A stretch of 64,000 nucleotides of DNA from Bacilli bacterium (GTDB lineage Bacteria > Bacillota_I > Bacilli_A > RFN20 > CAG-826), in contig JALCSW010000004.1 of assembly GCA_022653695.1 (NCBI GenBank), positions 15,578 to 79,577 on the forward strand, read 5' to 3'. Below are positions 6,364 through 63,150 of this stretch, piece after piece. Below the pieces are notes generated by a model. That model saw only the letters and a list, made by a program, of their open reading frames with translations. It made no database searches and was not told where the DNA came from. Position 1 is the stretch's first letter, and each line of letters opens with the position of its first letter. The position numbers and the translations under genes were made by a program.

Positions 6364-7761
6364 ATGGCGGACACGAAGTTCCTCGACGATTCCTACAAGT
6401 ATGGCTTCAAAACCGACGCCAAGGTCCTTTTCACGACGGGCAAAGGCCTCAATGAGGGCGTCGTCAGGGCCATCAGCAAGCATAAGCGCGAGCCGGAATG
6501 GATGCTCGAATACCGCTTGCGGGCCCTCAAGGCCTTTGAAGCGATGCCCCTTCCCAAATTCGGTCCGGATCTTAAGTTCCTCGATTTCCCCTCTTACACC
6601 TACTACACGGGCGTGGCCAAAAAAGAAGGCACCGATTGGGACGAAGTCCCTTCGGCCGTCAAAAAGACCTTCGATCGCTTGGGCATCCCCGAAGCGGAGC
6701 AGAAGTACCTTTCGGGCGTCACCACCCAATACGAAAGCGAAGTCGTTTATCACAACATGTTGGAAGAGGTCCAGAAGAAAGGCGTCATTTTCCTTTCCAC
6801 GGACATGGCCCTTCAGACCTGCCCGGACCTCATGAAAAAATATTTCGGCACCGTAGTGCCGTTCGCCGACAACAAATTCGCGGCCTTAAACGGCGCGGTT
6901 TGGAGCGGCGGCAGTTTCATCTATGTCCCCAAAGGCGTCCATCTCGACAAGCCGTTGCAGTCGTATTTTCGCATCAACAACGAAAAAACCGGGCAATTCG
7001 AGCGAACGCTCATCATCGTCGATGAGGGCGCCGACATCAATTACGTCGAAGGTTGCACGGCCCCCATTTACAGCAAGGAATCGCTGCACGCGGCGGTGGT
7101 TGAGATCGTCGTTCTAAAAAATGCCCGCTGCCGTTACACGACGGTCCAAAACTGGAGCAACAACATCGTTAATTTGGTCACTCAAAGGGCTTTGGTGGAA
7201 GAAAACGGGCTCATGGAATGGGTCGATGGGAACATCGGCTCCATGCGCAACATGAAGTATCCGGCCTGCATCCTTAAGGGCGAAGGCGCCCGCGGATCGG
7301 CGATTTCGATCGCCGTCGGCGGCCACAACCAGTTTCAGGATAACGGCGCCCGGATGATCCACATCGGGAAGAACACCTCCTCGACCATCATCTCGAAATC
7401 CATTTGCAAGAACGGCGGGACCGCGAATTATCGCGGCACCGTCAGGATGGAACCGACGGCCGAGAACGGCCATTCCCACGTCGAGTGCGACACCTTGATC
7501 CTCGATGGGAAGAGCTACAGCGACACCATTCCGACGAACGAGATCAAGAACCCCACCTCCTACATCGAACATGAGGCGACCGTCAGCAAAATAAACGAAG
7601 AGGAGCTCTTCTATCTCATGAGCCGCGGCATTTCCGAAGCCGATGCGACGCAGATGATCATCATGGGTTTCATCGAGCCTTTCTCACGCGAACTTCCGAT
7701 GGAATACGCGGTCGAACTGAACCAATTGATCAAACTTGACATGAGCGATTCGATCGGCTGA
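6364..7761 (+). CDS. sufB: Fe-S cluster assembly protein SufB
   Basis: [36 protein letters not shown]. Confidence 0.97.
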
Positions 7762-7777
7762 AGAATTTAACGGAACC

Positions 7778-9649
7778 ATGGATTACGATGTCATTGTCGT
7801 CGGTGGTGGGCACGCGGGGGTGGAGGCTGCGTGCGCCGCGGCCCATATGGGCATGCGGACGCTTTTGTGCACCCTTGACGTCAAGATGATGGCCAACATG
7901 CCTTGCAACCCCCATATCGGCGGTTCGGCGAAAGGCATCGTGGTTCGCGAAATCGACGCTTTGGGCGGAATGATGGGCGTCGCGGCCGACCACCGTCCTT
8001 TGCAAATCAAGTTTTTGAACACGGCCAAAGGGCCGGGCGTCCAATGCCTTCGGGCTCAGGAGGACAAAATCGGCTACCCGGCGTATATGCAGTCGCTGGT
8101 TCTCGCGACCCCCAATCTCACGGTCAAGGAATGCGAAGTCAAATCGTTGCTCTATGGCGACGGGAAAGTCTTTGGCGTCGTTACGGGGGATGGCGAAAGG
8201 ATATCCGCAAAGGCCGTCGTCATCACGACGGGGACTTATATGGAGAGCACCATCATTTCCGGGGAGGATGTCCATCCGGGGGGACCGGATGGGGAAGCTT
8301 CCTCCCGGGGGTTAAGCAAATGCCTTCAGGAAATGGGGCTTGACGTTTTCCGCCTTAAGACCGGAACCCCGCCCCGTCTTAAGAAAAGCACGATCGATTT
8401 CTCCAAAATGCAGGTTCAGCTTGGGCAAGACGGCGAATTGGCTTTCTCTTTCCTGACGAAGGAATTCACGCCCCTTTCGCGGCAATTGCCCTGCTATCTT
8501 TTCTACACTTCGCCCGAAACCTTAAGGATAATCCGCGACAATTTGGACAAATCCGCCGTGTTCAATGGCCTCATCAAAGGGGTGGGGCCCCGTTATTGCC
8601 CCTCCATCGAGAGCAAAGTCGTCCGTTTCGCGGACAAACCCCGCCATCAGCTTTTCCTGGAACCGGAGACCGAATTCGGCGAATCCGTTTATCTTCAGGG
8701 CTTTTCGATGGGTTTCCCGCACGCGATCCAAGAAAGGCTCGTCCATTCGTTGCCGGGCCTTGAGCGCGCCGAGATCCTCAAGTGGTCCTACCAAATCGAG
8801 TACGACGCGATTCGCCCTTTGCAGTTCAAGCCGACTTTGGAAACCAAAAAGTACGAAGGGCTTTATGGCGCCGGCCAGATATGTGGGACGTCCGGCTACG
8901 AAGAGGCCGCCGGCCTTGGCCTATTGGCCGGAATCAACGCTTCTTTGAAGATCCAAGGCAAGGAGCCGCTCATTTTGCGGCGGGACGAGAGCTATATTGG
9001 CGTCATGATCGACGATCTCGTCACCAAAGGGACCGACGAGCCTTACCGCCTTATGTCGAGCCGCGCCGAATACCGTTTGCTTTTGCGTCACGACAACGCC
9101 GATCTTCGCCTTACGCCGCACGGGCGCCGAATCGGCCTCATCGGCGAAGGCCGGTATCAGGCCTTTCTAAGCAAATACAAAAGAATCGACGAGGCCATCC
9201 ACATTATGGGGAAAACGAACGTCCAAGACAAAAAGGGCTGCGCCAAGTATCTTTTGGACCATGGGTTCACCGACACGGCGTGTGGGCATAAAGGGCTCGA
9301 GCTTCTGCGTCGCCCAGGGCTGACTTACCGCGGCATTTCCCCTTTGATGCCCGAACTGAAAGGGTTTTCCTTTGACGAGGGGGAAACGTTGGCCCTTGAG
9401 ACGAAAGTAAAGTACGAAGGCTATATCGGCAAGGAGCTTAAGGATGCCGCGAACGCCCAAAAACTCGAAAAGATCAAGCTTCCGGGCGGAGTGGATTACG
9501 AGAAAATCGACGGTTTGGCCCTTGAGGCTCGCCAGAAACTTAACGCCGTTCAGCCTCTCACGATCGGCCAAGCCAGCCGAATCAGCGGAGTCAACCCCGC
9601 CGACATTTCGATTCTGATCCTTTCGCTAAAAAAGAAAGGGCTCATATGA
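7778..9649 (+). CDS. mnmG: tRNA uridine-5-carboxymethylaminomethyl synthesis enzyme MnmG (GidA)
   Basis: GGGHAGVEAA, CNPHIGG, RLKTGTPPR, GPRYCPSIE, SRAEYRLLLRHDNAD. Confidence 0.98.
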   Translation: MDYDVIVVGGGHAGVEAACAAAHMGMRTLLCTLDVKMMANMPCNPHIGGSAKGIVVREIDALGGMMGVAADHRPLQIKFLNTAKGPGVQCLRAQEDKIGYPAYMQSLVLATPNLTVKECEVKSLLYGDGKVFGVVTGDGERISAKAVVITTGTYMESTIISGEDVHPGGPDGEASSRGLSKCLQEMGLDVFRLKTGTPPRLKKSTIDFSKMQVQLGQDGELAFSFLTKEFTPLSRQLPCYLFYTSPETLRIIRDNLDKSAVFNGLIKGVGPRYCPSIESKVVRFADKPRHQLFLEPETEFGESVYLQGFSMGFPHAIQERLVHSLPGLERAEILKWSYQIEYDAIRPLQFKPTLETKKYEGLYGAGQICGTSGYEEAAGLGLLAGINASLKIQGKEPLILRRDESYIGVMIDDLVTKGTDEPYRLMSSRAEYRLLLRHDNADLRLTPHGRRIGLIGEGRYQAFLSKYKRIDEAIHIMGKTNVQDKKGCAKYLLDHGFTDTACGHKGLELLRRPGLTYRGISPLMPELKGFSFDEGETLALETKVKYEGYIGKELKDAANAQKLEKIKLPGGVDYEKIDGLALEARQKLNAVQPLTIGQASRISGVNPADISILILSLKKKGLI

Positions 9650-10344
9650 CTTACGAGGAATTGGTTTCCAGCCTCGGCCCCTCGGTCGCCCTTTCCGCGG
9701 AAGCGGTTTCCAAACTTCGCCGTTTCGCCGCCCTCCTCAGCGAATGGAACGAAAAGATGAACCTGACCGCCATAACCAAGGAAAGCGAAGTGGTGGAGAA
9801 GCATTTCTATGATTGCCTTCTGCCCTGCAAATATCTGTCTTTGAAGGGGAAAAAGGTCGCCGACTTGGGAACGGGGGCGGGTTTTCCCGGCTTGGTTTGG
9901 GCCATCGTCAACCCCGAAGCCTCTTTCACCCTCATCGAGGCCACGGGAAAGAAGTGCTCCTTCCTTGAGGCCGCGGTCGAGGCCTGCGGGCTTGCTAACG
10001 TGAGGATCGTCCATAAGCGTTGCGAGGAGATGAAGGAGCGTGAGGCCTTTGATGTCGTGGTCGCGAGGGCGGTCGCCCCGATGGGAACGCTTCTTGAAAT
10101 TTCCCTCCCGCTTGTCAAGGTCGGTGGGGTTTTCTTGGCGATGAAAGGGTCTGGCGGCCAAGAAGAATTTAATAAAACCGGCAAAGAAATAGAAAAGCTT
10201 GGGGCGGTTCTCAAAACCATGAAATCCGAATCGCTCCCCAACGGCATGGGCATTCGCCGAAATTTCATTTTCCTCAAAGAAAGGCCCACGCCCAGAAAAT
10301 ATCCCCGCCCTTGGGCCACGATAATCAAAAAACCTTTGGTGTGA
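9646..10344 (+). CDS. rsmG: 16S rRNA m7G527 methyltransferase RsmG (GidB)
   Basis: WNEKMNLTAI, DLGTGAGFPG, ARAVA, KYPR. Confidence 0.96.
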   Translation: MTYEELVSSLGPSVALSAEAVSKLRRFAALLSEWNEKMNLTAITKESEVVEKHFYDCLLPCKYLSLKGKKVADLGTGAGFPGLVWAIVNPEASFTLIEATGKKCSFLEAAVEACGLANVRIVHKRCEEMKEREAFDVVVARAVAPMGTLLEISLPLVKVGGVFLAMKGSGGQEEFNKTGKEIEKLGAVLKTMKSESLPNGMGIRRNFIFLKERPTPRKYPRPWATIIKKPLV

Positions 10345-10382
10345 AACTTTTAAAAAATGTTTCACGCGAGTAAACTTAAGCC

Positions 10383-11162
10383 ATGACTCAAATTATTTCC
10401 ATCGCCAATCAGAAAGGCGGGGTCGGGAAGACGACGACCGCGATCAACCTTTCGGCCGCCTTAGCCAAACAACGCCAAAAAGTGCTTTTGATCGATTTCG
10501 ACTCGCAAGGGAACGCGGGGCGGGGCCTCGGGGTCGACATCACTCTTCTCGAAAGGACCGTTTTCGACGCCCTCATCGGAAGGGTTGACGTCAATAAGTG
10601 CATTTTGCCATCGCCCCAAGAGGGGCTTTTCCTTTTGCCCAGCAACCTTAAACTCGCTTCCTTAGACGCTTTTTTTCAGGCCACCCCGAACCCCGAACCG
10701 TTTCGTCTTTTGGAGAAGGCGATCAAGGATCTGAAGGCGGAGTATGATTACATCATCATCGATTGCCCGCCTTCGCTTGGTCTTCTTTCCCTCAATGCCC
10801 TGACCGCTTCCGACGGGGTCATCATCCCCGTTCAGTGCGAGTATTTCGCGATGGAAGCTCTTGCCGCGATTCTTTCGACCATCACCAAAGTTCAGCACGA
10901 CTACAACCCAAGGCTTCGCATCGAGGGTTTCTTGCTTACGATGTATGACCCCCGGATTAGTTTGGCGACGGAGGTAGCCACCCAAGTCCGAGGCCTCTTC
11001 AAGGAAAACACTTTCATAATCGCCATTCCGCGCAACATCTCCTTGCCGGAAAGCTGCGCCAAAGGGTTGCCCGTCGGCAGTTGGCGGCCTTCCTCCCAAG
11101 GCGCGTTGGCTTACGCCGCCCTCGCCCGTGAGGTTTTGGACCATGACCAGGAAAAGCGGTAA
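10383..11162 (+). CDS. parA: ParA/Soj chromosome partitioning ATPase
   Basis: NQKGGVGKTTT, IDCPPSLG, IPVQCEYFA. Confidence 0.96.
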   Translation: MTQIISIANQKGGVGKTTTAINLSAALAKQRQKVLLIDFDSQGNAGRGLGVDITLLERTVFDALIGRVDVNKCILPSPQEGLFLLPSNLKLASLDAFFQATPNPEPFRLLEKAIKDLKAEYDYIIIDCPPSLGLLSLNALTASDGVIIPVQCEYFAMEALAAILSTITKVQHDYNPRLRIEGFLLTMYDPRISLATEVATQVRGLFKENTFIIAIPRNISLPESCAKGLPVGSWRPSSQGALAYAALAREVLDHDQEKR

Positions 11163-39372: not shown

Positions 39373-39405
39373 AAAAAGCGCGGGAAGCGAAATCCCGCGC
39401 TTTTT
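39373..39405. terminator. Bidirectional terminator
   Basis: AAAAAGCGCGGGA...TCCCGCGCTTTTT. Confidence 0.85.
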
Positions 39406-40093
39406 ATTCGCGGTCATCTTTTTGGAACAGGAAAAGGCGGTCGAAGGGGCCTTTCGGAAGCCTTTGAAACTCGGCGCGCTTCCTGAAGATGAGACCCTTG
39501 AAAGCCTCGATCCAGTCTTTGTCCGGACGGTTGTTGCTTCGGAAAACCCCGCCGATATGGATTTCGCCTTTTCCGTTGGTCGCGCCTCCGATTCGTTTGC
39601 GGATCCCTTCGTCGATAAGGAAATTGACTTTGAGGATCAAATGGCCGCCCTTCTCAAGGAGGCGCTCGATTTCTATGGCGTATTCCAAAGCGTTCTTAAA
39701 CGGGATGACGTCGAGGAAGTTGCTGCAAATGAAGAGACCGACGCTTTCGGAGGGCAAAGAACGCAGAGCCTCGATTCGGCCGACCTTGAAGGAAACGTTC
39801 TTCAGCCCGCTTTTTTTGGCGGAGCCTTCGGCGAAGGCGACCGCGTTCCCCGAAGCGTCAAAGCCTAGGCAAACCGAAGCGGGGCAGATGAGGGCCGCAT
39901 CGAGCAGAACCGAGCCTTCCCCGCATCCAAAGTCCACGATCTTTTGGGCTGAGGGGCCGTATTCCCCGATCCAGCTTTCAAGGGGCTCGCCCATCTTCAC
40001 GTCTTCGTGAGTCAACTTCATCGGCGCGACGCCTTTGAAAGCGTTATCCCAGAATTCCTCGATTTTTTGGCTTTCGTTCATAGTTCTTTCCAT
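39404..40093 (-). CDS. Class I SAM-dependent methyltransferase
   Basis: IVDFGCGEG, GFDAS, LLEKGGHLI. Confidence 0.85.
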   Translation of the reverse strand: MERTMNESQKIEEFWDNAFKGVAPMKLTHEDVKMGEPLESWIGEYGPSAQKIVDFGCGEGSVLLDAALICPASVCLGFDASGNAVAFAEGSAKKSGLKNVSFKVGRIEALRSLPSESVGLFICSNFLDVIPFKNALEYAIEIERLLEKGGHLILKVNFLIDEGIRKRIGGATNGKGEIHIGGVFRSNNRPDKDWIEAFKGLIFRKRAEFQRLPKGPFDRLFLFQKDDRE

Positions 40094-40106: not shown

Positions 40107-40145
40107 AAAAAAAAGAAAAAGGCCCAAGTTTCTCGCTTGGGCCTT
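40107..40145 (-). terminator. Intrinsic terminator after the PAI-like gene
   Basis: AAGGCCCAAG/CTTGGGCCTT stem with a long T-run on the minus strand. Confidence 0.8.
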
Positions 40146-40161
40146 CATAAGGCTAAAACGC

Positions 40162-41553
40162 TTAGAAGAAGCGCCCGATGAGGTCACGCGAGGCCTCGCA
40201 GGTTTCTTCCATGTCGCCGAAGGCCATGACTTCGCCGGCATAGTAGGTGTTGTCCTTGCCTTGCATGGCATCTACTTTGTCATACCAGCCGGCGGCGTAA
40301 TCGGCGGGGCTGAGGTGGGGGCAGTAGTAGCTTTCCTCCTCGAGCTCGACTTTGGAAACCGGGCAACCGCAGATGGCCATGTCATCAAGCGTGGTCTTGC
40401 GGGCGTAATCATAGCTCACGTCCTTGTCGCCCTGGTGGTTGCGAAGGGTGTAGGTGATGATGAGCTGGTCTTTGACGTCGCACCAGCGGTGGTAATAAAC
40501 CATCATGTGGCCGCGGCGCGACGGAACCATGTTATCGAAGAAGTAAGCCGATATTTGCGGGCATTTTCCCTTCTCGACCCAGTTGGCCATCGAGATGTAT
40601 TTCTCGTGGATGATCTTCCCAAAGAGGTCTTTCTCCTCCTTGCGGGCATCCGCGATTTTGGCGAACCAGTCGAGCGGAATGGTGACGATGAGTTTGTCGA
40701 AGACTTCCTCTTTTCCGTTGACCGTGACGGTGACTTTGCCACCTTTGCGGACGACTTTAGTCACTTCGCTGTTGAGGTTGGCCTTATGAAGAAGGTGGTT
40801 GTTGACCCCCTCCCAAATGGCCTGAGTGCCATCCTTCCACGTCCAAAGCCTCATGTTGACGAACTCGAGCGTGGTGGCCACGTCGAGGTATTTCATGACG
40901 TAAGCGGCGGGAACTTCGTCAAAGAAGCCATAGCCGAAACTGGTGAACGGGGCGATCCAGATCCTCATGACCGGTTCGATTTTGTTCAATTTGCAGAATT
41001 CGGTGAACGGAAGGGCCAGATCCTTGAGGTTCGGGTTCGTGCCTTCCACGTGTTGCATGTGGTTCTCAGACAGTTTTGACAGGCCTTCGTATTTGCCGTC
41101 CGCGACCCCGCGGTGGCCGTTCACGTCGTAGCCGGCGTATTTGGTCTCCATGAGCTTCGCCAGTCTCTTGACGGATTTCTTGAGTTTAAGAAGGCCGAAA
41201 AGCTTTTTGAAGGAGAAGTCCTTTTTCGGATCGAAAGGGAAGACTTCCTTTCCTTCGTTGTTTTTGTAGATGCGGGCCATTTCCGGTCCGTCGTGGGTCG
41301 TTCCGCCGAAAATCTCGGCTTCGTTGACGGCCCAGTAGGTTTTGGCGCCCATGATCGCGCCCATCTCGATGGTACGCTTGTTCTTTTCGTCGCCATCGAC
41401 CGGGAATTTCGGCGACCAGCATTTGCCGCCGACGCGATTGTCCTTTTCGTAGATGACGTAGTTTTTGTATCCCTTTTTCTCGAGATACATAGCGGCCGTG
41501 ACGCCAGCCGGGCCACCGCCGATGATGCAGATTCTCTCGTCTAGTTTTGCCAT
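40162..41553 (-). CDS. FAD-dependent polyunsaturated fatty acid (linoleate) isomerase, PAI-like
   Basis: Colinear with C. acnes PAI as recalled: IIGGGPAG, VGGKCWSP, EMGAIMG, PFTSFGYG, VPAAYVMKYLD, LWTWKDGTQA, GHMMVYYHRW, AGWYDKV, MQG, YAGE. Confidence 0.85.
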   Translation of the reverse strand: MAKLDERICIIGGGPAGVTAAMYLEKKGYKNYVIYEKDNRVGGKCWSPKFPVDGDEKNKRTIEMGAIMGAKTYWAVNEAEIFGGTTHDGPEMARIYKNNEGKEVFPFDPKKDFSFKKLFGLLKLKKSVKRLAKLMETKYAGYDVNGHRGVADGKYEGLSKLSENHMQHVEGTNPNLKDLALPFTEFCKLNKIEPVMRIWIAPFTSFGYGFFDEVPAAYVMKYLDVATTLEFVNMRLWTWKDGTQAIWEGVNNHLLHKANLNSEVTKVVRKGGKVTVTVNGKEEVFDKLIVTIPLDWFAKIADARKEEKDLFGKIIHEKYISMANWVEKGKCPQISAYFFDNMVPSRRGHMMVYYHRWCDVKDQLIITYTLRNHQGDKDVSYDYARKTTLDDMAICGCPVSKVELEEESYYCPHLSPADYAAGWYDKVDAMQGKDNTYYAGEVMAFGDMEETCEASRDLIGRFF

Positions 41554-41894
41554 AGTTGCAAGATCTCCTTTCGATAAAGATAAACTGATTGGCTTTTTTC
41601 ATTATATGCTTCTCGTCATTAGACGAGGAAGTTTTTGGGACATTTGTTTATTTTCACGCTTTTTTCATCTTGTTTCAGCGGCATAATCGCGCGACGGGTT
41701 TCGCCGAAAGCGGTCTGTCTCGCCTCGTCGGCGCCCCTTTTGTTGATGCTCTGATTTTTCGGGCGCAATCCTCAGCGGATCTTCACTTTAATAAGGGATT
41801 TCCTCTTTGATAGGGGGTTAGGTTTTTGGATAATTGTGATGATTTTCCGTTTCGCGAGGTCTATGATGTAACGATTTCCTGAGGGAGGGAGAAT

Positions 41895-42674
41895 ATGTAC
41901 GAGAAAGAACTAGCCGCGATGATCAAGGCCGCCTTCGACGCGGAAAAAGTCATCATGGGCGTTTACGCCAAGCCGTTCGCCGTTGAGATCAAAAGCGACG
42001 ATTCCCCCGTCACCGACGCCGACAAGGGAGCCGATTCCCTGATCCGCCGGGAGTTAAGGAAGGCCTTCCCCCAGTATGCGTTTCTGACCGAGGAGAGCAA
42101 AGACGACAAAACCCGTCTCGCTAATGATTGCGTGTTCATCGTCGATCCCGTCGACGGAACGAAGGAATTCGTTTCGCGTAACGGCGAATTCTGCACCAAC
42201 ATCGCGTTGTCTTTTAAGCACGAGGCGGTAGTGGGCGTCATCAACATCCCGGTCAGGCATGCCCTTTATTTCGCCGTCAAAGGCCAAGGCGCCTTCCGTC
42301 TTGAGGACGGCAAGGAACCGGTTCGCATCCACGTTTCCTCGAAGGATGGCAATCTGACCGCCCTGCGCAGCATCTCCTTTTTCACCGAGGCGGAAGAGGC
42401 CCTCATCCGTAAGCATAAGGATAGAATCACCCACGTCGAGAAACTCGGCGCGGCCCTTAAATTTTGCGCGATCGCCGAAGGGAAGGCCGAGGTTTCCTAT
42501 CGCATGAGCCCCTCCACCAAGGAATGGGACATCGCCGCCGGAACCATCATTCTGAAGGAGGCGGGCGGAGTGATCGAGAAACCGGACGGCACCGAATACG
42601 CCTTCAACCGCGACGACGTCTATAACCGCGATGGCTATATGCTCGCGAACAAGCGCTCTAATCTGCTCTTCTGA
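41895..42674 (+). CDS. cysQ: 3'(2'),5'-bisphosphate nucleotidase CysQ (inositol monophosphatase family)
   Basis: KSDDSPVTDAD, VDPVDGTKEF, EWDIAAG. Confidence 0.9.
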   Translation: MYEKELAAMIKAAFDAEKVIMGVYAKPFAVEIKSDDSPVTDADKGADSLIRRELRKAFPQYAFLTEESKDDKTRLANDCVFIVDPVDGTKEFVSRNGEFCTNIALSFKHEAVVGVINIPVRHALYFAVKGQGAFRLEDGKEPVRIHVSSKDGNLTALRSISFFTEAEEALIRKHKDRITHVEKLGAALKFCAIAEGKAEVSYRMSPSTKEWDIAAGTIILKEAGGVIEKPDGTEYAFNRDDVYNRDGYMLANKRSNLLF

Positions 42675-42750
42675 TCACAGAAGGGGATACAAGTGTAGCT
42701 TTGCCCCCTTTTCGGTTATAATCCTTTGGGTAAAAGGAAGGCGAGGGCGC

Positions 42751-42996
42751 ATGCATTTCAAGAAATCGATCGACGGACTTCCGCATATCGTCAAAATCGT
42801 TTTGGCGATCGTTCCGTTCCTTGACCTCGTCTTCGTCGTCGCCCGCCTCGTCTATGACGTGGAAAACAAAAAGGCAATACCCCTTATTTTGGACATTCTC
42901 TGCTTTTTCGGCCTTGGGGTTCTCACTTGGATCATGGACATCGTCGACACCATCTTCGCGAATCGGATCTTCCTTTGGGAGGACTGGATCGCCTGA
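42751..42996 (+). CDS. Small membrane protein
   Basis: 81 aa with hydrophobic segments; purine-rich RBS. Confidence 0.65.
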   Translation: MHFKKSIDGLPHIVKIVLAIVPFLDLVFVVARLVYDVENKKAIPLILDILCFFGLGVLTWIMDIVDTIFANRIFLWEDWIA

Positions 42997-43540: not shown

Positions 43541-43933
43541 ATGGCTAAAGACGCTTTCCCGAAGCTGGGATTGGCCCAGCGCAAGACCCTCAGTGCCGTT
43601 TCCCTTCTTGAGGAAAAAGGCTTTTTCGGTTCTTCGGAGGGGCTCAGCAAGATCTTCGTCGGCCTTGCCGACATGGAGAGCCGTCCCTTTAAGGATCTTG
43701 CCTGCTATGGATATTGGCCCTCTTTAAGCAAGAAAAAGATTAAGGGGCGCCTTACTCAGCTCGTGCGGAAAGGATGCCTCAGAAACGTTTGGGTGGCGTC
43801 GGAGAACGATTATTTCCTCCGCCTCACCGAAATGGGTCGGGCTCTCGCCGCCACGGTGAGGCTGAGGAAGAAGCCGTTGCCTCAGGCTTCGGCCCGCACC
43901 ATCATTCATTTGGAAAAGGAGAAAAAAGAATGA
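43541..43933 (+). CDS. Stand-alone winged-helix protein resembling the RecQ RQC domain
   Basis: YG...LSKKKI...LTQLVRKGCL...LRLTEMG pattern; TGA overlaps the peptidase ATG. Confidence 0.55.
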   Translation: MAKDAFPKLGLAQRKTLSAVSLLEEKGFFGSSEGLSKIFVGLADMESRPFKDLACYGYWPSLSKKKIKGRLTQLVRKGCLRNVWVASENDYFLRLTEMGRALAATVRLRKKPLPQASARTIIHLEKEKKE

Positions 43934-59707: not shown

Positions 59708-60052
59708 CTAAACCACTTTAATGTCGCGGATGCTGACGTCGCTGCCGGTTATGAGGTATGTGTCGTCGCCCCCGCAGTAGGGGCATTTGCGGCCGTATTC
59801 GACCGTGCCGTAGGTCTTCTTGCACTTCTGACAGTACGAGATTCCCTTGACGATTACCGTGGTGAGTTCGCACTCCTTCATGTGATCGGTCTTTTTGATG
59901 GCCCAGTCGTAGCATTCCTTGAAGTAGGAGGGGATCACGCTGGAGACCTCGCCGATTTCGATGGTGAGGCCAACGACTTTCTTCGCGTGGTTCTTCTTTG
60001 CTAGCGCCTCGACTTGATCGATGACGTAGAAGACGATGCCAAGCTCATGCAT
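59708..60052 (-). CDS. hypA: HypA/HybF family nickel metallochaperone
   Basis: MHELGI, IGEVSSV, CQKC...CPYCG; overlaps the upstream gene by 8 bp. Confidence 0.9.
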   Translation of the reverse strand: MHELGIVFYVIDQVEALAKKNHAKKVVGLTIEIGEVSSVIPSYFKECYDWAIKKTDHMKECELTTVIVKGISYCQKCKKTYGTVEYGRKCPYCGGDDTYLITGSDVSIRDIKVV

Positions 60053-62954
60053 GCTTGACGCCGTTATCGACCGCGTTGCCGGTGTAGGGCTTCTCTTTCG
60101 CGTCGGCTTTGTGGGCTTTCCCATAATCCCGGCGTTTCTTGCGAAGCTCCTTGGCCTCTTTGCTGCCCGAGTGGGCCAAGATGCGGAAGCTTCTCTTGAT
60201 GGCGTAGGGGAGCATCCCCTTGACCTTGTCCTCCCCTTTCCGCATGTCGGTGTTCTCCGGCGTGTCGCGGACGAGATGGATGGCGTCGAACTGGCAGCGG
60301 GTCGTGCAGATCCCGCAGCCGATGCACTTATGGGGGTCGACGACCGAGGCGCCGCAACCAAGGCAGCGGCCGGTCTCTTTCTTGACTTGCTCTTCCGTCA
60401 GGTCCTTGCGGACGTCGCGGAACGTTTTGGCTTCCTCGATCGCCTTGTCGACGGGGGCTTCCTGACGTCCGATGTCGTCGTAGGAAGGATAGGAGATGTC
60501 GTCTTTGTCGAGCGGGGTGAAGACATGGCGGCTGAGGCCGACGGTGGCTTCGGCGCCCGGACGGACGTGGCGGGCCAAACTGTCCGCGACGAAGTGCCCG
60601 GCCGCGATGGCGTCTATCACGAACTTCGGGCCCGTGAAGACGTCGCCGCCGACGAAGATGTCGGGGTCGGCCGTCTGATAGGTGAGTTTGTCGGCGATCG
60701 GGTAATTGCCATGCCAGAACGTCACTTTGCTCCCGTCAAGGAGATGGCCCCATTCGATGGCTTGGCCGATCGCGAAGACGATCTGGTCGCACTTGACGGT
60801 CTTGGTGACCGCCTCGTCGTAAAGCGGGGAGAACCTCTTCGTGGCCGGGTCGATGGTGCGCGTGCATTTCTTGAGGACGATGCCCGTGACCTTGCCCTCT
60901 CCGTCCACGAGGACTTCTTTGGGCCCCCATTGGTTGGAGATGGTGATGCCTTCGGCGAGGGTTTCGGCGACCTCATCCCCGCTGGCGGGCATGGTTTCGG
61001 CGCTCTCGAGACAGTACATGCCGACGTTTTTCCCGCCGAGCCTCTTGGCGGTCTTGGCGCAGTCGACCGCGACGTTGCCGCCGCCGATGACGACCACGTC
61101 GCCGGTGAATTTCTCATTTTGATGTTCGTAGGAATGCAGCAGGTAGTCGACCGCGATGGCGGTGTTTTTGGCGTTGTCGTTCGGGACGTTGGGCCGGCGG
61201 CCCCCTTGGCATCCGATCGCGAGGTAAAAGGCCTTGTAGCCTTTTTTCTTAAGCTGGGGGATCGTCACGTCCTTTCCGACCTCGACCCCGCACTGGATGT
61301 CGACGCCCAAGGACTTGATGATGTCGATCTCGGCTTCGAGGACGTCCTTTTCGAGCTTGAAACTCGGAATGCCGTACATCATCATGCCGCCCGGTTTCGC
61401 GTTCTTTTCGAAGACGGTCGGCTTGAAGCCCTGAAGGGCCAAGTAGTAGGCGGCGGAAAGCCCAGCCGGGCCGGCGCCGACGATGGCGATTTTCTCTTTG
61501 AAGCCGCCCACGAGGGAGGGGATGGCCTTCTTCGGGACGAAACGGGTCTTGGAGTTGAGGTCGAAATCCGCGACGAACCTCTTGACCCCGTCGATGTTAA
61601 CGGCGTGGTCGATGGTCCCCCGGGTGCAGGCCTCTTCGCAACGCTTGTTGCAGACGCGGCCGCAGACGGCTGGGAACGGATTCTCTTTCTTGATCAAAGC
61701 GAGGGCTTCCTGATATTTGCCCTGATGGGCGAGCTTAAGGTAGCCTTGGACCGGGACGTGGGCCGGGCAGGCCGCCTTGCAAGGGGCGCTCCCGGACTCA
61801 TAAGTGTCGCTCAGGCGCATGGTGTCGCGGTAATTCTCGTCCCAGGCGTATTTGCCCCATTTGTTGTTGTCGGGGAGCGGGGCCTGGGGGTATTCGACCG
61901 GCTTTCCGTCTTTGTGGCAGAGCTTTTGGCCGAGCTTGACGGCCCCGGCCGGGCACGATTCGACGCATAAGCCGCAAGCCACGCAGTTTTCCGGCGTGAC
62001 TTTGGCGGTGTAGGCGGATTTGCTGAGATTCGGGGTGTTGAAGAGCATGGACGTCCTGAGGGCGTTGCAGATCTTCACGTCGCAGTTGCAGATATCGAAG
62101 ATGTGCTCCGATCCGTCGATGTTGGTGATCTGGTGGACGAAGCCGTTGTCCTCGGCTTTCTGGATTATGTCGAGGGCCTTTTTCGGCGTGATGTAGTGGG
62201 CGCGGCCCGTTTCGACCGCGTAGTCGGCCATGTCGCCCATCTGAATGCACCAATCGTGCGGGTCGTCGATGCAGCCCTCATCCATTTTCTGCTTCGAATA
62301 GCGGCAGCTGCAAAGGCCGGCCGCGATGTGGCCCTTATATTTCTTCATCCAGTAGGAGATGTGCTCCAAGTCGACGGATTTCTGCTCCATCGGGATCGCT
62401 TTCTCGACCGGGATGACGTGCATGCCGATGCCGTCCCCTCCCGGGGGGACCATCTGCGTGATGCCGGCAAGCGGCATGAAGGTCATCCGCTCAAAGAAGG
62501 GGGCGACCACCGGGTTCTTGTCGATGCGCTCCGTGGTGGAGTTGAAGAGCTCGGCCGAACCGGGGACGAAGAAAGGAATGCGATAGCGTTTGATCTTCGG
62601 AAGATCGTCGAGCGGGGCGTCATGGCTGTAGCGATCGCCATAGTCGAATTCGATGATGCCGATCACCGCCATTTGCTCATACAGGTCATGCAAGGCCTTG
62701 GCATCGTAATCCGGGTTCAGCTTGATAAGCTGATCCAAAGTGTACCATTTGCGGAGTTTCATTTTGTTCAAAACGACCGCCATCTCATGGGTCAGGGTTT
62801 CCCGAAGGCCCCAGTATTCGGGATCCGTGCTCTTGAGGCCCAAAAGGTGATGCGGGACGATGTCCGTGATCTTCTTGCCCAGCTTAAGAATCTCTTTGTC
62901 GGGGTTCTTTTCCCCGTAGTACTTCGAGACGTACTTCTTGTTGATTTCTGACAT
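60045..62954 (-). CDS. Large Fe-S flavoprotein (Cys-rich N-terminal domain, ferredoxin, GltD-like NAD(P)H/FAD module, ferredoxin)
   Basis: CSCR, CNC; CVACGLCVESCP; APCKAACP...CGRVC...CEEAC; GAGPAG; GGGNVA; CLGCG; CIGCGICTTRC. Confidence 0.88.
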   Translation of the reverse strand: MSEINKKYVSKYYGEKNPDKEILKLGKKITDIVPHHLLGLKSTDPEYWGLRETLTHEMAVVLNKMKLRKWYTLDQLIKLNPDYDAKALHDLYEQMAVIGIIEFDYGDRYSHDAPLDDLPKIKRYRIPFFVPGSAELFNSTTERIDKNPVVAPFFERMTFMPLAGITQMVPPGGDGIGMHVIPVEKAIPMEQKSVDLEHISYWMKKYKGHIAAGLCSCRYSKQKMDEGCIDDPHDWCIQMGDMADYAVETGRAHYITPKKALDIIQKAEDNGFVHQITNIDGSEHIFDICNCDVKICNALRTSMLFNTPNLSKSAYTAKVTPENCVACGLCVESCPAGAVKLGQKLCHKDGKPVEYPQAPLPDNNKWGKYAWDENYRDTMRLSDTYESGSAPCKAACPAHVPVQGYLKLAHQGKYQEALALIKKENPFPAVCGRVCNKRCEEACTRGTIDHAVNIDGVKRFVADFDLNSKTRFVPKKAIPSLVGGFKEKIAIVGAGPAGLSAAYYLALQGFKPTVFEKNAKPGGMMMYGIPSFKLEKDVLEAEIDIIKSLGVDIQCGVEVGKDVTIPQLKKKGYKAFYLAIGCQGGRRPNVPNDNAKNTAIAVDYLLHSYEHQNEKFTGDVVVIGGGNVAVDCAKTAKRLGGKNVGMYCLESAETMPASGDEVAETLAEGITISNQWGPKEVLVDGEGKVTGIVLKKCTRTIDPATKRFSPLYDEAVTKTVKCDQIVFAIGQAIEWGHLLDGSKVTFWHGNYPIADKLTYQTADPDIFVGGDVFTGPKFVIDAIAAGHFVADSLARHVRPGAEATVGLSRHVFTPLDKDDISYPSYDDIGRQEAPVDKAIEEAKTFRDVRKDLTEEQVKKETGRCLGCGASVVDPHKCIGCGICTTRCQFDAIHLVRDTPENTDMRKGEDKVKGMLPYAIKRSFRILAHSGSKEAKELRKKRRDYGKAHKADAKEKPYTGNAVDNGVKHA

Positions 62955-63150
62955 TTCGCGTTCTCCTGTCCCGTTAGGTCCGAAAAAGCGTTTTTCCGTT
63001 TGTCTTTTCGCCCTTAACGTTCTTATTTTCGTCCAATGCGCGAGCAAGAAGCAAGGTATTTCCGAAGCGATCTTTTTCTATAAAAAGAAAAAGTCTCGAA
63101 AGTGAAGGCCGATTAATCCATACTGGAACATGACAAAGAGGTATCTGAAA

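Follow-up and report, generated by a model that had tools for sequence, protein, structure and literature searches.

The DNA stretch analysed here, called the window, comprises 64,000 nucleotides of contig JALCSW010000004.1 (positions 15,578 to 79,577, forward strand) from the genome assembly GCA_022653695.1 of a Bacilli bacterium. On its reverse strand, an intact open reading frame (ORF) at positions 40162–41553 encodes a 463-aa flavin adenine dinucleotide (FAD)-dependent flavoprotein similar to the polyunsaturated fatty acid isomerase (PAI) of Cutibacterium (Propionibacterium) acnes. The assignment is based on homology, an AlphaFold2 (AF2) model and a Foldseek comparison. Judged by its sequence, the protein is a member of a large uncharacterised sister clade of PAI, designated here as the long form, and is not a rarity. 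The gene product is probably a soluble, cytoplasmic, FAD-dependent double-bond isomerase of the PAI type, acting on free polyunsaturated C18 fatty acids. [quoted passage not shown]

The best match of the window protein among the PDB sequences searched with phmmer was 2b9w_A (424 aa; E 4.8e-114), an entry of the P. acnes isomerase, whose structure is also found under 2b9x, 2b9y, 2ba9, 2bab and 2bac. The match consists of two colinear stretches, residues 4–148 of the window protein against 5–134 of 2b9w_A and residues 177–463 against 139–423. The latter, which covers the substrate domain, is the stronger (304 bits). The second-best PDB match had an E-value of 5e-06 and was restricted to the N-terminal FAD motif. 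The PAI orthologue of Cutibacterium, reached by a scan with a short degenerate motif (locus L086:6541-7815, reverse strand), aligns with residues 1–423 of the 2b9w chain without insertions or deletions, and therefore PAI numbering applies to it directly. With BLASTP, 204 of 460 positions (44%) are identical between residues 5–463 of the window protein and residues 6–423 of this orthologue (E 2e-127), and MAFFT aligned 422 positions, of which 203 are identical. The similarity thus runs from end to end and is not limited to the FAD fold, in agreement with the original prediction. The motifs on which that prediction relied (EMGAIMG, TKYAGYDVNGH, PFTSFGYGFFDEVPAAYVMKYLD, LWTWKDGTQA, GHMMVYYHRW and GWYDKVDAMQGKDNTYYAGEVMAFG) are all present and aligned.

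The predicted fold leads to the same protein. The AF2 model, calculated with a 48-sequence alignment, has a predicted local distance difference test (pLDDT) value of 95.1 and a predicted template modelling (pTM) score of 0.92. Its top match in Foldseek is again 2b9w, with a template modelling (TM) score of 0.96 normalised to PAI, a root-mean-square deviation of 2.6 Å and 43% identity; the runner-up is CpaO (9kp8), with 15% identity and a TM score of 0.77. Both the BLASTP and the structural alignment, which had been proposed as checks, therefore point to PAI. The likeness to PAI comprises the full-length colinearity, the predicted fold, the GxGxxG motif, the positions of Arg88 and Phe193 and the lack of a signal peptide. 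The window protein differs from PAI in being 39 residues longer and in its host, which is a member of Bacilli from digesters and landfill that probably has no fatty-acid synthesis of its own, whereas PAI comes from a skin actinobacterium.

The family libraries give a generic picture. Pfam places the window protein in Amino_oxidase (PF01593; E 2.6e-14) and also matches NAD_binding_8, and no NCBIfam model reaches its cut-off for the protein; hence the relatives are named "FAD-dependent oxidoreductase" or "protoporphyrinogen oxidase" in public databases. These names and the Pfam placement would fit an amine oxidase or some other, unrelated flavin oxidoreductase. The window protein has its FAD-binding domain and its general two/three-domain layout in common with the flavin amine oxidase/CrtI superfamily (CpaO 9kp8, LkcE 6f32, MAO and PPOX), but the members of this superfamily have other substrates and other chemistry. 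The solved amine oxidases and PPOX are 12–16% identical to the window protein with TM scores of 0.54–0.72, against 43% and 0.96 for PAI, and the NCBIfam result also speaks against an enzyme of this kind, which is highly improbable.

Residue conservation was counted in 75 rows of the long-form clade and 14 rows of the wider family; six sequences (P0122, P0123, P0126, P0127, P0129 and P0137) were assigned to neither group. The FAD motif reads IIGGGPAG, followed by E36. The codons of GGGPAG (G12–G17) at positions 41503–41520 on the reverse strand correspond to the dinucleotide-binding GxGxxG, a reading that the two Pfam matches support. G12, G14, G17 and E36 are invariant in the alignments, and the three glycines are present in every row of both the clade (75) and the wider family (14). 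The residues Arg88 and Phe193 of PAI, which we take to be the gate of the substrate channel that selects free fatty acids, are retained as well, as had been predicted. Arg88, the carboxylate gate, corresponds to R94 in DGPEMAR (codon at 41272–41274, reverse strand), and its partner Phe193 to F231 in TTLEF (codon at 40861–40863, reverse strand), in both the phmmer and the BLASTP alignments. The role of these two residues in PAI is said to go back to work by Liavonchanka et al. of 2006 and 2009, reportedly in PNAS and JBC. R94 is Arg in 75 of the 75 clade rows and in 7 of the 14 wider-family rows; for F231, Phe is found in 75 of 75 and 5 of 14, respectively. For PAI, the available part of PMC2885616 describes a gating mechanism that is unique and operates in a hydrophobic channel. 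Beyond the gate, 113 positions are conserved in at least 95% of the clade and identical in PAI; for 50 of these, the residue is shared by no more than half of the 14 wider-family rows.

The long form is set apart by a segment just downstream from the NGH motif. Residues 148–177 (41023–41112, reverse strand) contain a clade-specific insertion that had been estimated at about 25 residues and amounts to 24 by alignment: between the columns of H133 and D140 there are 30 residues in the window protein and 6 in PAI. The segment is 28–39 residues long in each of the 75 clade rows, against 5 in every one of the 14 rows of the wider family. Its flanks are conserved (GHRGVA.G.Y.G ... G.NPNLKDL), and AF2 predicts an ordered beta-hairpin with strands at residues 154–159 and 168–172 and pLDDT values of about 92–95. 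Smaller insertions relative to PAI are located at residues 52–58 and around residues 107–122.

Relatives of the window protein are abundant. At E ≤ 0.001, at least 1000 proteins came out of a word-indexed protein search, remote FAD-fold relatives included, and the best 120 of them are 61–100% identical and 462–493 aa long. An exhaustive search of representatives at 50% identity gave 126 clusters at E ≤ 1e-30, and 214 stretches encode a relative in contigs from one genome per species. Among the 80 loci listed of these 214, 35 come from isolates with RUG, hRUG, RGIG, RUI or ruminal_MAG names, several of which state a ruminant gut site. The cultured carriers among the loci listed are Erysipelotrichaceae NK3D112 (L013), Porcincola intestinalis (L022), Lactimicrobium massiliense (L048) and Curtanaerobium respiraculi.

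Phylogenetic trees were inferred by quick IQ-TREE searches under LG+G4 with 96 and 119 rows and rooted on representatives of the wider family; the second of these trees omits P0126, P0127, P0129 and P0137, which form long branches, as well as the fragmentary sequences L115 and L116 and genome G017's second copy. The Cutibacterium PAI is sister (support of 99 in the Shimodaira–Hasegawa-like approximate likelihood ratio test, SH-aLRT) to a single long-form clade (98–99) that holds the window protein. Together with a 98%-identical twin, the window protein takes the basal position in a subclade of 52 rows (99) with most of the copies from rumen Erysipelotrichaceae and Lachnospiraceae. Taxon labels are interleaved on the tree, with families of Bacillota, Bacteroidaceae, Sphaerochaetaceae and Eggerthellaceae intermingled.

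Within the genus of the host, 30 of 77 other genomes carry a copy, and so do 18 of the 50 that are of high quality (none below 90% completeness); among the other families of the order, 24 genomes were searched and none has a copy (0/24). The genus copies are 53% to 98% identical to the window protein, and one genus genome has two of them. They are polyphyletic, occupying at least three strongly separated positions in the tree with at least five label changes. Forcing them together made the tree 739 log-likelihood units worse (p = 5e-43 in the approximately unbiased test), for a group that was named after the tree had been seen. A phylogeny to look for horizontal transfer had been proposed with the original prediction. 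The polyphyly is most simply read as recurrent horizontal transfer, or else as ancient paralogy followed by extensive loss; no direction of transfer is claimed. One further genus genome has a broken copy (L116, G005:C8:94483-98199), which has an internal TAA stop and is divided between two frames. It is likely to be a pseudogene, and this fits the gene being dispensable.

Taken together, the full-length homology, the shared predicted fold, the retained gate residues, the sister position to PAI and the lack of an obligatory redox partner at the locus argue for a PAI-type isomerase. PAI itself is a soluble enzyme that converts free linoleate to t10,c12-CLA, according to the available text of PMC2885616, and catalysis by its FAD is ionic and leaves the redox state unchanged overall, as stated in the accessible part of PMC13076199. 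By analogy, Arg94 and Phe231 of the window protein would hold the free carboxylate of the fatty acid at the mouth of the hydrophobic channel, and the cis,cis-pentadiene would lie over the flavin. The FAD would transiently take up a hydride and return it, and a conjugated diene would result with no net change in redox state. From linoleate, the product would most plausibly be t10,c12-CLA. This regiospecificity is a weaker claim than the isomerase activity: it is not readable from 44% identity and is proposed here tentatively, as an outcome that is possible but on balance rather doubtful.

Several points weigh against this interpretation. Fifty-six percent of the residues differ from PAI, His172 of PAI is replaced by Phe in the window protein and by Tyr or Phe across the clade, and PAI lacks the conserved hairpin of 24 residues. 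An assay of any long-form member was not found in the literature searched, and in the available part of a review from 2025 no more than three linoleate isomerases are listed as purified (PMC12254105). The electron-transfer genes next to many relatives, described below, hint at a reductive pathway or a redox role for the clade.

The sequence differences could mean that the fold and chemistry of PAI are retained with another outcome: c9,t11 or trans,trans CLA as product, another substrate such as C18:3, C20/C22 polyunsaturated or hydroxy fatty acids, or esterified lipids. The hairpin and the channel substitutions would then re-position the substrate. The restriction of the ordered insertion to the 75 clade rows, the change at His172 and the overall identity of 44% are compatible with this, and PAI itself yields different products from 18:3n-3, as reported in the available text of PMC7339423. 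However, the gate residues, which are thought to fix the distance between carboxylate and flavin, are invariant in the clade, and the 113 conserved positions in common with PAI and the backbone TM score of 0.96 also speak for an unchanged outcome. An altered product or substrate is considered unlikely, and a PAI-like isomerase is preferred.

The gene neighbourhoods were compared at 76 loci: the window, the Cutibacterium locus and 74 loci from relatives. Of the 80 loci fetched, six (L007, L009, L043, L051, L067 and L076) were lost during ORF picking. A GltD-like Fe-S flavoprotein of about 944 aa is encoded downstream of the PAI-like gene at 28 of the 76 loci, sometimes with HypA and HypB. At L014, L021, L022, L024, L037, L042, L047 and others, the genes for the PAI-like protein and the Fe-S flavoprotein adjoin HypA and HypB-like nickel-insertion genes. 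A divergent AMP-dependent ligase is found at 17 loci and an acyl-ACP thioesterase at 13. At 12 loci the PAI-like gene is accompanied by a CrtI-like flavoprotein gene followed by an FNR-like 2Fe-2S reductase gene, and this set is restricted to a subclade with about 55–58% identity to the window protein. In the window, the PAI-like gene adjoins none of these neighbours (Fe-S flavoprotein, AMP-ligase, thioesterase, CrtI-like or FNR-like). The window locus was also considered as a member of a candidate biohydrogenation module composed of PAI-like, CrtI-like, FNR-like, AMP-ligase and acyl-ACP thioesterase genes; this was rejected, as the module genes are absent there.

The gene in the window looks monocistronic, because it has a terminator of its own, the next gene on the same strand lies beyond that terminator, and the upstream neighbour is divergent. 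The original prediction had stated that the gene has its own ribosome-binding site (RBS) and terminator, and both can be read from the sequence. The RBS GAAAGGAGA is located at 41572–41564 (reverse strand), and 11 nt separate GGAG from the ATG. An intrinsic-terminator-like hairpin with a T-run (40108–40146, reverse strand) begins 15 nt past the stop codon; the hairpin itself, at 40146–40118, has an 11-bp stem and a 7-nt loop. The next gene on that strand (39404–40093) encodes a 229-aa protein with a SAM-methyltransferase fold. It was considered as a partner and rejected: the terminator separates the two genes, the methyltransferase has no NCBIfam match, and it does not recur beside the relatives. 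The upstream neighbour belongs to the inositol-monophosphatase family (41895–42674), and the remaining neighbouring ORFs are housekeeping-like as judged by their sequences, without a family-library run.

The neighbours of the relatives raise the question of whether the protein is a net redox enzyme of lipids, such as a reductase of conjugated dienes or enoates, a desaturase or a fatty-acid oxidase, that takes up or gives off electrons via separate Fe-S/FNR partners as a component of biohydrogenation and not as a stand-alone isomerase. Besides the recurrent flavoprotein and reductase genes, the host genome contains counterparts of such partners. Two homologues of the Fe-S flavoprotein from the 28 loci are present, one in the window (60045–63047, reverse strand; 52% identity) and one in contig 1 (49% identity). 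The former is a 1000-aa protein with a GltD-like C-terminal half (4Fe-4S domains and Pyr_redox_2) and an N-terminal region of about 350 aa without a family match, and it is below every NCBIfam cut-off. Contig 1 also has an operon, unlinked to the PAI-like gene (L087, G000:C1:162000-180000, 6537-10884), which encodes a CrtI-like protein of 519 aa, an FNR-like FAD/NAD/2Fe-2S protein of 399 aa and a CDP-alcohol phosphatidyltransferase, and is divergent from a GntR/FCD regulator. The order of flavoprotein and then reductase is the same as in the sets adjacent to PAI-like genes, and the identities are 29% for the CrtI-like and 37% for the FNR-like protein. On the other side, the window gene is monocistronic, followed by a terminator and surrounded by housekeeping genes, the neighbouring flavoproteins of the relatives fill reductase-like roles more naturally and leave the isomerase step to the PAI-like protein, and the sole characterised relative is a non-redox isomerase. 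A net redox function is thus regarded as quite improbable. The arrangement at the window locus, with its own RBS and terminator and no adjoining redox partner, fits a reaction without net redox change, as expected of a PAI-type isomerase.

The host has a lipid background in which such an isomerase would meet free fatty acids. Its genome assembly consists of 1.29 Mb in four contigs and is 79% complete. PF00109, the ketoacyl-synthase family, was found neither in this 79%-complete genome nor in the 40 others of the genus that were searched, 41 in all (0 of the 24 of high quality), and the control search found it in 14 of 14 reference genomes. The host lineage most likely cannot elongate fatty acids, and the genus appears incapable of fatty-acid synthesis. 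The host genome encodes four fatty-acid-binding proteins of the DegV/FakB type, PlsY and an MCRA/oleate hydratase (705 bits). Since these proteins are present and PF00109 was not found, the host is probably a scavenger that lives on imported free fatty acids. The oleate hydratase would be a second flavoenzyme of the host that acts on free unsaturated fatty acids. Because the host looks like a scavenger, the PAI-like enzyme would act on imported free polyunsaturated fatty acids, and its role might be their detoxification or their conditioning before entry into membrane lipids. The sequencing runs that contain the window DNA come from bioreactor sludge, landfill and wastewater; no RNA run is listed among these 18 runs.

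Genes of this kind have been noticed before. In 2007, the best match to PAI outside P. acnes was 26% identical, as given in the available text of PMC2885616. In 2023, a BLASTP search of rumen metagenomes with PAI (ADE00997) at ≥40% identity led to seven metagenome-assembled genomes (MAGs) carrying PAI genes, and one of these showed a correlation with t10,c12-CLA in milk, as described in the accessible part of PMC10019597. These rumen genes belong to the same family by the same criterion, and their hosts, Lachnospiraceae, Oscillospiraceae and unclassified MAGs, match the taxa of the loci listed here. The available portion of that paper differs from the present analysis in containing abundance and correlation data only, with no sequence anatomy, insertion, phylogeny or lipid background of the hosts. 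The original prediction stands as far as the PAI homologue is concerned, but "unrecognised" is too strong in view of the seven MAGs and the 214 species genomes with a relative. The proposed link to milk-fat depression is indirect for this host, whose DNA was found in bioreactor sludge, landfill and wastewater, not in the rumen; the rumen relevance comes from the related copies in rumen MAGs. As the candidate idea is already published and the host is not ruminal, the finding is useful rather than surprising.

The rumen producers of t10,c12-CLA, which triggers diet-induced milk-fat depression, are still not settled. The available text of PMC7339423 describes C. acnes as the sole trans-10 former among 28 strains and judges it too rare to account for the effect and unlikely to be the main agent in vivo; the cultured long-form carriers are not among the strains named in this part of the paper. 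A large sister clade of PAI in rumen and gut genomes offers concrete candidate genes, including those of cultured carriers that are directly testable. What the window copy adds is the sequence anatomy of the clade, with its hairpin and retained gate residues, the evidence for horizontal spread, and the context of a fatty-acid-scavenging host that suggests a physiological role.

A bolder proposal, which is regarded as somewhat unlikely, extends the isomerase assignment to the whole clade. The long-form proteins would be the missing isomerases of the trans-10 pathway, moving horizontally among anaerobes of the gut, the rumen and digesters. In hosts that do not synthesise fatty acids, the present one among them, they would serve as a conditioning step and not as a detoxifier, converting scavenged cis-polyunsaturated fatty acids to conjugated, partly trans chains before these enter the membrane through FakB and PlsY. 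On this proposal, the hairpin might act as a lid or a docking site that governs which substrate or partner is chosen.

Near the gene, two small ORFs on the forward strand, 42631–42996 (121 aa) and 43541–43933 (130 aa), have no Pfam match. Candidate promoter elements (41601–41627, reverse strand) are seen upstream of the RBS, namely a TATAAT box (41606–41601) and before it the palindrome CTCGTC-TAAT-GACGAG (41627–41612). The palindrome is perfect, and the box lies 5 nt downstream of it. It was considered as an operator shared with other genes and rejected, since it occurs once in the 1.29-Mb genome and is otherwise kept only in the 98%-identical relative, which gives no evidence of a regulon. 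From its sequence and position, the palindrome may be a dedicated operator of the PAI-like gene. The GC content of the gene is 0.544, against 0.556 for the window.

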